64,000 bases of DNA from Escherichia coli. Lineage in GTDB: Bacteria; Pseudomonadota; Gammaproteobacteria; Enterobacterales; Enterobacteriaceae. The translations under genes were made by a program, and so were the position numbers. Below, piece after piece: positions 12,107 through 13,195 of the stretch. Below the pieces are notes generated by a model, which was not told the DNA's origin, searched no databases, and saw only the letters and a program-made list of their open reading frames with translations. Position 1 is the stretch's first letter. Each line of letters opens with the position of its first letter. The DNA is taken from NCBI RefSeq assembly GCF_013122565.1, contig NZ_CP053258.1. The stretch is one strand, 5' to 3'.

Positions 12107-13195
12107 TTACTGCTTCAGAGTAGCAAATGCCTGAATGATGGTATCGATTTGCTCACGACTGTGGGCAGCGTTTACGCTACAGCGCAGCAGCGTGATGCCT
12201 GCAGGCGCGGCAGGTGGCAGGATAAGATTCACATAAACGCCCAGCGAAATAAGCTCGCGCCAGATGCGTAAACCTTCCTCTTTCGAACCGATTATTACCG
12301 GCACTACCGGACTAATATGTGAACTTAACTCATAACCCAGTTTTTGCAGACCGTCATACAGATGGTTGGCGTTATCCATCAGTTTTTGCCGCAGCTCTGG
12401 TTGTGTGGCAATGGTTCTTAACGACGAGCGCACGGTCGCAATGCAGGACGGAGAAGGAGAGGCGGTAAAAATATACGGGCGGCTGCCGTAGCGCAGCACT
12501 TCCATCGCTTCCGAACCGACAGCAAAACCGCCAATCGAGGCCAGACTTTTACTGAAGGTACCAACGATAATATCCACATCATCTTCAACGCCAACGGCTT
12601 CAGCCAGTCCGCGCCCCGTTGCGCCTAACACGCCAAACGAATGCGCTTCATCGACAATCAAATAACCACCGAGACGACGTTTGATATCAACAATTTCCGC
12701 TAACGGCGCAACGTCACCGAGCATGCTGTAGATACCCTCAACGATGATAATCGCCTCTTTCGCCCGTTCACCGAGGCGAACCATGCGCCGTTCCAGATCT
12801 TTAGCATCGTTATGGCGGAAACGAATAATTTCCGCGCCACCGAGAGAACAGGCGTCATAAATACTGGCGTGGCTGTCGGCATCCAGTAACACCACGGCGT
12901 TATGGTCGGCAAGTGCGCTGATGACGCCTAAATTAGCGGTATAACCGGTTGAAAAAACGATAGCGGTAGGGCGATTGAAAAACTCGGCAATCTCTTTCTC
13001 TAACGCCAGGTGCGGCGCATAACTGCCGTTTGCCATACGAGAACCGGTGGTGCCGGTGCCTTGGGCCGCTAACGCTGCCTGACCTTCGGTGGCGGAATAC
13101 ACTTCATCAATACAGGTGCCAAACGGTGTTAACCCGTTGTCACTAAATTGCAGTCGCTCGCCAGCAAGGCGCGCATATTTATCGTATAGCCCCAT
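12107..13195 (-). CDS. PLP-dependent alpha-oxoamine synthase family enzyme (serine palmitoyltransferase / AONS / KBL-like)
   Basis: 362 aa; class-II aminotransferase-like sequence with PLP-lysine context GTFSKSLASIGG, DEAHSFG, STGYTANLG; start overlaps ACP stop (TAATG). Confidence 0.8.
   Translation of the reverse strand: MGLYDKYARLAGERLQFSDNGLTPFGTCIDEVYSATEGQAALAAQGTGTTGSRMANGSYAPHLALEKEIAEFFNRPTAIVFSTGYTANLGVISALADHNAVVLLDADSHASIYDACSLGGAEIIRFRHNDAKDLERRMVRLGERAKEAIIIVEGIYSMLGDVAPLAEIVDIKRRLGGYLIVDEAHSFGVLGATGRGLAEAVGVEDDVDIIVGTFSKSLASIGGFAVGSEAMEVLRYGSRPYIFTASPSPSCIATVRSSLRTIATQPELRQKLMDNANHLYDGLQKLGYELSSHISPVVPVIIGSKEEGLRIWRELISLGVYVNLILPPAAPAGITLLRCSVNAAHSREQIDTIIQAFATLKQ

Follow-up and report, generated by a model that had tools for sequence, protein, structure and literature searches.

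A sphingolipid gene cluster with the layout aasR-acpR-spt has been described in Escherichia coli (Padilla-Gomez et al. 2022; PMC9386255); the gene considered here is known, as are its operon and its ACP-dependent chemistry. The product of spt is a PLP-dependent alpha-oxoamine synthase that uses L-serine and acyl-AcpR to form 3-oxosphinganine. Formation of 3-oxosphinganine was shown for the intact BL21 enzyme, ECD_02854, which prefers palmitoyl-AcpR over palmitoyl-CoA (PMC9386255). The ceramide-forming step of this cluster is attributed to YghO, a predicted acyl-CoA N-acyltransferase (PMC9386255).

The DNA analysed here is a stretch of 64,000 nucleotides (the window), which carries this cluster with an spt gene that is 84 bp shorter than that of E. 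coli strain A30. The features of the locus are as follows.

9926-12072, plus strand: lptF and lptG paralogues of 356 and 359 aa, convergent with spt and intact (annotation; PF03739; lengths as in A30)
12070-12104, minus strand: terminator-like hairpin of 16 pairs (10 of them G-C), directly 3' of the spt stop, from the sequence
12107-13195, minus strand: spt, serine palmitoyltransferase, an allele with an 84-bp in-frame deletion (362 instead of 390 aa; open reading frame, PF00155, NF047599)
12548-12550, minus strand: codon of the PLP-binding lysine, which aligns with K265 of S. paucimobilis SPT
13083-13088, minus strand: deletion junction, with the sole retained copy of CGAAGG (DNA alignment with A30)
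13195-13443, minus strand: acpR, specialised acyl carrier protein of 82 aa, intact (PF00550; no mismatches to the A30 protein; role from PMC9386255)
13475-14389, minus strand: 'epi', a reductase of the NAD-dependent epimerase/dehydratase family (SDR type), 304 aa, intact (PF01370; A30 length; no internal stops)
14386-16074, minus strand: aasR, fatty acyl-AMP ligase/acyl-AcpR synthetase of 562 aa, intact (NF006624, 868 bits; A30 length; no internal stops; role from PMC9386255)
16478-17620, plus strand: yghO, predicted N-acyltransferase of 380 aa, intact and divergent (annotation; 'aca', ECD_02850, in PMC9386255)

As in other rhodobacterial (alpha-, beta- and gamma-proteobacterial) sphingolipid clusters, spt directly follows a dedicated ACP gene and is linked to a gene for an acyl-ACP synthetase; it is the last gene of the minus-strand operon aasR-epi-acpR-spt. 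The other genes of the cluster have the lengths found in A30 and contain no internal stops, and these intact neighbours fit a recent and isolated lesion. Searches of YghO against Pfam and NCBIfam returned no match.

The two paralogues of the LptF/LptG family directly adjoin spt, and PGAP names them lptF and lptG, like the housekeeping genes. In Caulobacter, second copies named LptF2 and LptG2 lie in the sphingolipid region and have been proposed to transport sphingolipids (PMC11324152). On the 5' side of the paralogues, window positions 4735-9323 hold three thymidylate-kinase-like genes, namely yghT, yghS and a 252-aa open reading frame whose match to Thymidylate_kin falls below threshold (26.0 bits against a Pfam cutoff of 27), followed by a membrane protein of the Polysacc_synt family (449 aa) and a 274-aa open reading frame without a Pfam match. 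These genes may be further members of the spt lipid cluster.

The longest minus-strand open reading frame at the locus runs from an ATG through 362 codons (12107-13195). An in-frame TAA lies two codons 5' of this start, and the start ATG overlaps the stop TAA of acpR in the string ATAATG, a one-base overlap that is the same in strain A30. Given this stop and the overlap with the ACP gene, the frame cannot be extended beyond 362 aa, as an earlier reading made from the sequence only had stated. The encoded protein has the class I/II aminotransferase fold (Pfam PF00155, E = 3e-50), and a search of the PDB returned the Sphingomonas SPTs as its best relatives (E = 2e-98), then KBL, BioF, ALAS and CqsA with E values between 1e-33 and 1e-53. 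The gene at this locus in strain A30 is annotated as spt, serine palmitoyltransferase, and encodes 390 aa; about 4,100 complete E. coli genomes likewise carry a 390-aa spt, with a start codon identical to that of the window allele. Outside a single gap, the window protein is 99% identical to WP_000524970.1. The window gene is the known E. coli spt in an ordinary mutant allele, rather than a new form of the enzyme.

The difference in length lies inside the protein. Residues 1-36 are identical to those of the 390-aa allele, and the protein alignment then opens a single 28-residue gap after residue 36, which removes EGRIGNKKVILAGTNNYLGLTFNHDAIS, residues 37-64 of the intact protein. The DNA alignment with strain A30 places the gap at exactly 84 bp (28 codons), in frame. 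The sequence-only reading had supposed that some 25-30 residues were missing from the N-terminus when compared with canonical family members; the size of the loss is borne out, at 28 aa relative to the 390-aa allele, but the loss is internal and the N-terminus itself is intact. That reading had also pointed to other strains as a check for an indel near 13150-13200, and an indel is indeed found in this comparison, at 13083-13088. The alignment with S. paucimobilis SPT from the PDB search is broken in the same way: query residues 3-38 pair with SPT 24-60 and query residues 37-357 with SPT 87-409, leaving about 26 SPT residues unpartnered in the middle of the N-terminal region.

Intact alleles carry two CGAAGG direct repeats 84 bp apart, a perfect match of 6 bp that extends to 8 of 9 bases. 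Consistent with a single retained copy, the two BLAST pieces overlap by exactly 6 bases, the first ending at 13088 and the second beginning at 13083. In E. coli, deletions between short direct repeats, such as those of the classic lacI spectra, are associated with replication slippage. The most likely cause of the window allele would be the loss of 84 bp between the two CGAAGG repeats by replication slippage or by a microhomology-mediated deletion; slippage between the short repeats is inferred from the structure of the junction only.

We evaluated the conservation of the lost segment by searching the intact protein against a representative library of 1.84 billion proteins, clustered at 50% identity, and aligning 61 single-domain hits of 370-460 aa. 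None of these 61 diverse representatives has a gap across residues 37-64; small N-terminal gaps occur in two, both with a match that starts late. In the numbering of the intact protein, Y53 is invariant (61 of 61), N51 is present in 55, L54 and G55 in 57 each and L56 in 54. As judged from this alignment, no N-terminal motif of the family is more conserved than the one in the deleted segment, the near-invariant GTNNYLGL. Both the loop that characterises alpha-oxoamine synthases, G-[ST]-N-[ND]-Y-L-G-L, and the beta-hairpin that precedes it are absent from the window protein. An alignment of this kind had been proposed as a check on the shortening, and it does not show a full-length catalytic core that varies at the N-terminus in the usual way only: GTNNYLGL is truly gone. 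The proposal that the missing part belongs to the N-terminal region that contributes to the substrate pocket stands, with about 25-30 aa lost there.

Family profiles give the same picture. Against NF047599 the window protein scores 535.2 bits and the intact protein 599.2 bits, both above the curated cutoff of 500, but the best stretch of the window protein covers only profile positions 66-390, where the intact protein matches end to end (1-390). Profile positions of about 38-65 have no counterpart in the window protein. Across the NCBIfam profiles for bioF, KBL, ALAS, CqsA and SPT, matches of the intact allele start near the N-terminal ends of the profiles, and those of the window allele begin about 27 positions later. 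The protein is thus short relative to BioF, KBL, ALAS and CqsA alike as a result of the internal deletion. The cofactor site is preserved: the PLP lysine is kept as K216 (K244 of the intact protein) in the motif GTFSKS, and H109, D182, H185 and K216 all stand in nearly invariant columns and have aligned partners in S. paucimobilis SPT. The large and C-terminal domains are wholly retained.

An AF2 model of the intact protein (pLDDT 96) superposes on PDB 2JG2 with a TM score of 0.96 at 46% identity. In this model the deleted residues correspond to two strands (37-40 and 43-47), a loop (48-55) and the first residues of a helix (60-73), so that the N-terminal beta-hairpin and the G-T-N-N-Y-L-G-L loop are missing from the allele, together with the first turn of helix 2. 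When the deletion variant is modelled, the remaining fold is preserved, with pLDDT falling to 54-63 at residues 31-50. AF2 confidence predicts the effects of deletions poorly and the variant model is informative at the junction alone; its drop in pLDDT there is weak evidence that points in the same direction as loss of function. In solved structures of BioF, KBL, ALAS and SPT, the N-terminal loop region lines both the active site and the dimer interface. In S. paucimobilis SPT, the residue that aligns with Tyr53 of intact E. coli Spt is Tyr73, which hydrogen-bonds a PLP-bound inhibitor in docking and molecular-dynamics work (PMC8218698). A literature search on the role of the deleted loop, covering Tyr73 and Asn74 in SPT and the corresponding Asn in ALAS, BioF and KBL, gave this docking study as its one relevant result. 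The structural role given to the loop draws on conservation, the AF2 model and the known structures of the family.

The rarity of the allele was assessed by megablast of window positions 12000-13500 against the 5,426 RefSeq complete E. coli genomes, which matched the spt locus in 4,142. Full-length rows were taken by even sampling down the ranking of these 4,142 matching genomes, and in all 29 such rows the match came in two pieces, with 1,583-1,586 bp of subject against 1,499-1,501 bp of query. The junction was also probed with a 46-mer centred on it, GATGAAGTGTATTCCGCCACCGAAGGTCAGGCAGCGTTAGCGGCCC, neither arm of which can seed a match on the intact allele; it had no match among the 5,426 RefSeq complete E. 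coli genomes. The positive control, a 46-mer from close by, matched 2,430 genomes of the same set; the source genome of the window lies outside the set searched. Exact matches to the 362-aa protein are limited to the record QJU27012.1/WP_171460368.1, from one 4.82-Mb contig, and to one Logan contig. By comparison, at least 1,000 contigs carry the queried 390-aa sequence, and a length of 390 aa is shared by most of the members examined in the 5,829-member protein cluster that holds both.

A singleton allele from a genome outside the RefSeq complete set invites the suspicion of an assembly or sequencing artefact, the strain really having an intact 390-aa gene. We consider this improbable. The 362-aa protein is also encoded on a 95-kb Logan contig, an independent assembly of run SRR11451224, which matches the window at 100% identity over 7,089 bp with the junction included. 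Furthermore, the gap is an exact multiple of three with a 6-bp direct repeat at its bounds, as is typical of real slippage deletions, and no repeat is long enough for assembly collapse. A single isolate is probably the source of both the GenBank genome and SRR11451224, which makes them independent as assemblies and not as isolates. Since the separate assembly reproduces the junction base for base, the deletion is probably a real mutation, found in one strain. Over 14 kb (window 6000-20000), identity to the nearest complete E. coli genome reaches only 98.4%, which leaves no sister strain for comparison. The sequence-only reading had raised an undetected frameshift; in this view a frameshift or pseudogene near 13150-13200 would have its true start farther upstream. 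Short length is the one observation in favour of this idea, to which we give next to no credence, given an in-frame deletion of exactly 84 bp. Codons 1-36 and 65-390 lie in one frame with no stop or frame change and are 99% identical to the intact protein, and annotated genomes show the same start codon, overlapping the acpR stop in the same way.

The same reading had offered adaptation to an ACP-bound acyl substrate as a reason for the shortening. The position of spt directly after the ACP gene and near a fatty acyl-AMP ligase gene would suit a natural isoform with a short N-terminus; however, about 4,100 genomes carry the 390-aa allele in an identical ACP-linked operon, and the intact BL21 enzyme ECD_02854 is itself the one with the preference for palmitoyl-AcpR (PMC9386255). 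As the full-length Spt is the ACP-dependent form, shortening as an adaptation to ACP is not supported. In addition, the short form occurs in one genome only, its N-terminus is not shortened and none of the 61 diverse relatives lacks the segment, all of which makes such an isoform very unlikely. There is a small chance that the deletion protein folds and has partial or altered activity, or acts in a dominant-negative or AcpR-sequestering manner. The deletion is in frame, the PLP lysine is present along with the large and C-terminal domains, all predicted with high confidence, and the score exceeds the family cutoff (535 against 500), so some residual function is possible. Against this, the lost loop contains the family's most conserved N-terminal motif and, in solved BioF, KBL, ALAS and SPT structures, lies at the active site and dimer interface. 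The junction region is also predicted to be disordered, and the tyrosine equivalent to Tyr53 contacts the PLP-bound inhibitor in the S. paucimobilis docking study (PMC8218698). More speculatively, and with a slim chance of being right, a stable 362-aa protein could have taken on a new role as a dominant-negative partner, as a sink for acyl-AcpR or as an enzyme of altered amino-acid or acyl specificity, the last of these because the pocket-forming loop is gone, or the strain could prove a useful natural spt knock-out.

Together these data favour, with a probability of about 0.85, a model in which the known spt has lost 84 bp between CGAAGG repeats in one strain, leaving a 362-aa product that is most likely inactive or badly impaired. 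With the frame kept, a 362-aa protein without residues 37-64 would still be translatable. Because the near-invariant N-terminal segment is gone from it, loss or severe impairment of Spt function is the most likely outcome, as inferred from conservation and the structural models. The sphingolipid pathway would then be blocked at its first step with the rest of the cluster intact. As spt is last in the operon and its frame is kept, no polar effects are expected.

In public annotation the deletion protein is still named 'serine palmitoyltransferase' (WP_171460368.1), since it clears the NF047599 cutoff (535 against 500) despite the loss of a near-invariant motif. A dead enzyme would make pathway inferences for this genome wrong. 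With the rest of its sphingolipid cluster intact, the strain may be usable as a natural spt-deficient E. coli, and such a deficiency could help to test what the cryptic sphingolipid pathway contributes in E. coli. Beyond this strain the consequences are small, the allele being a mutant of a gene that is already characterised.

Two further observations concern the surroundings of the locus. Identity to strain A30 is 99.5% for the spt-acpR segment on its own, against 98.4% for the best genome over 14 kb, which suggests that window positions 6000-20000 are a mosaic or belong to a less-sampled lineage. Elsewhere in the window, a four-gene set resembling Wadjet (JetABCD) lies at 27479-34164 on the plus strand between glcA and yqgA; it comprises genes for DUF3375 (498 aa), DUF4194 (254 aa), an SbcC/SMC-like ATPase (1095 aa) and a DUF3322 plus JetD_C protein (394 aa). 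In LHM10-1, the closest complete genome, this site holds only a truncated DUF3375 gene, a frameshifted IS3 transposase, a hypothetical gene and a tRNA-Phe. The glcA-yqgA site is a variable island.

Set beside known systems, the junction resembles E. coli deletions between short repeats in that a perfect 6-bp repeat bounds the lost segment and one copy is kept, although in the window spt the mechanism is read from the structure of the junction alone. With BioF, KBL, ALAS and CqsA, the window protein shares the fold and the PLP-lysine chemistry; the profile match of the intact Spt starts at about the point where those of their own members do, whereas that of the window protein starts about 27 positions later. 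S. paucimobilis SPT (PDB 2JG2, 2W8J) can be superposed on the model of intact E. coli Spt and aligned with the core of the window protein (E = 2e-98), but its residues 61-86, G71-T-Y73-N74-Y-M-G-M among them, are unmatched in the window protein; the Sphingomonas enzyme has about 20 extra N-terminal residues relative to the E. coli protein. The closest comparison is with E. coli Spt itself (ECD_02854 of BL21(DE3); WP_000524970.1; NF047599). The window gene occupies the same locus, between the lptG paralogue and acpR, and has the same start codon, the same operon partners acpR, epi and aasR and the same divergent yghO, and differs by the absence of residues 37-64, in one strain only.
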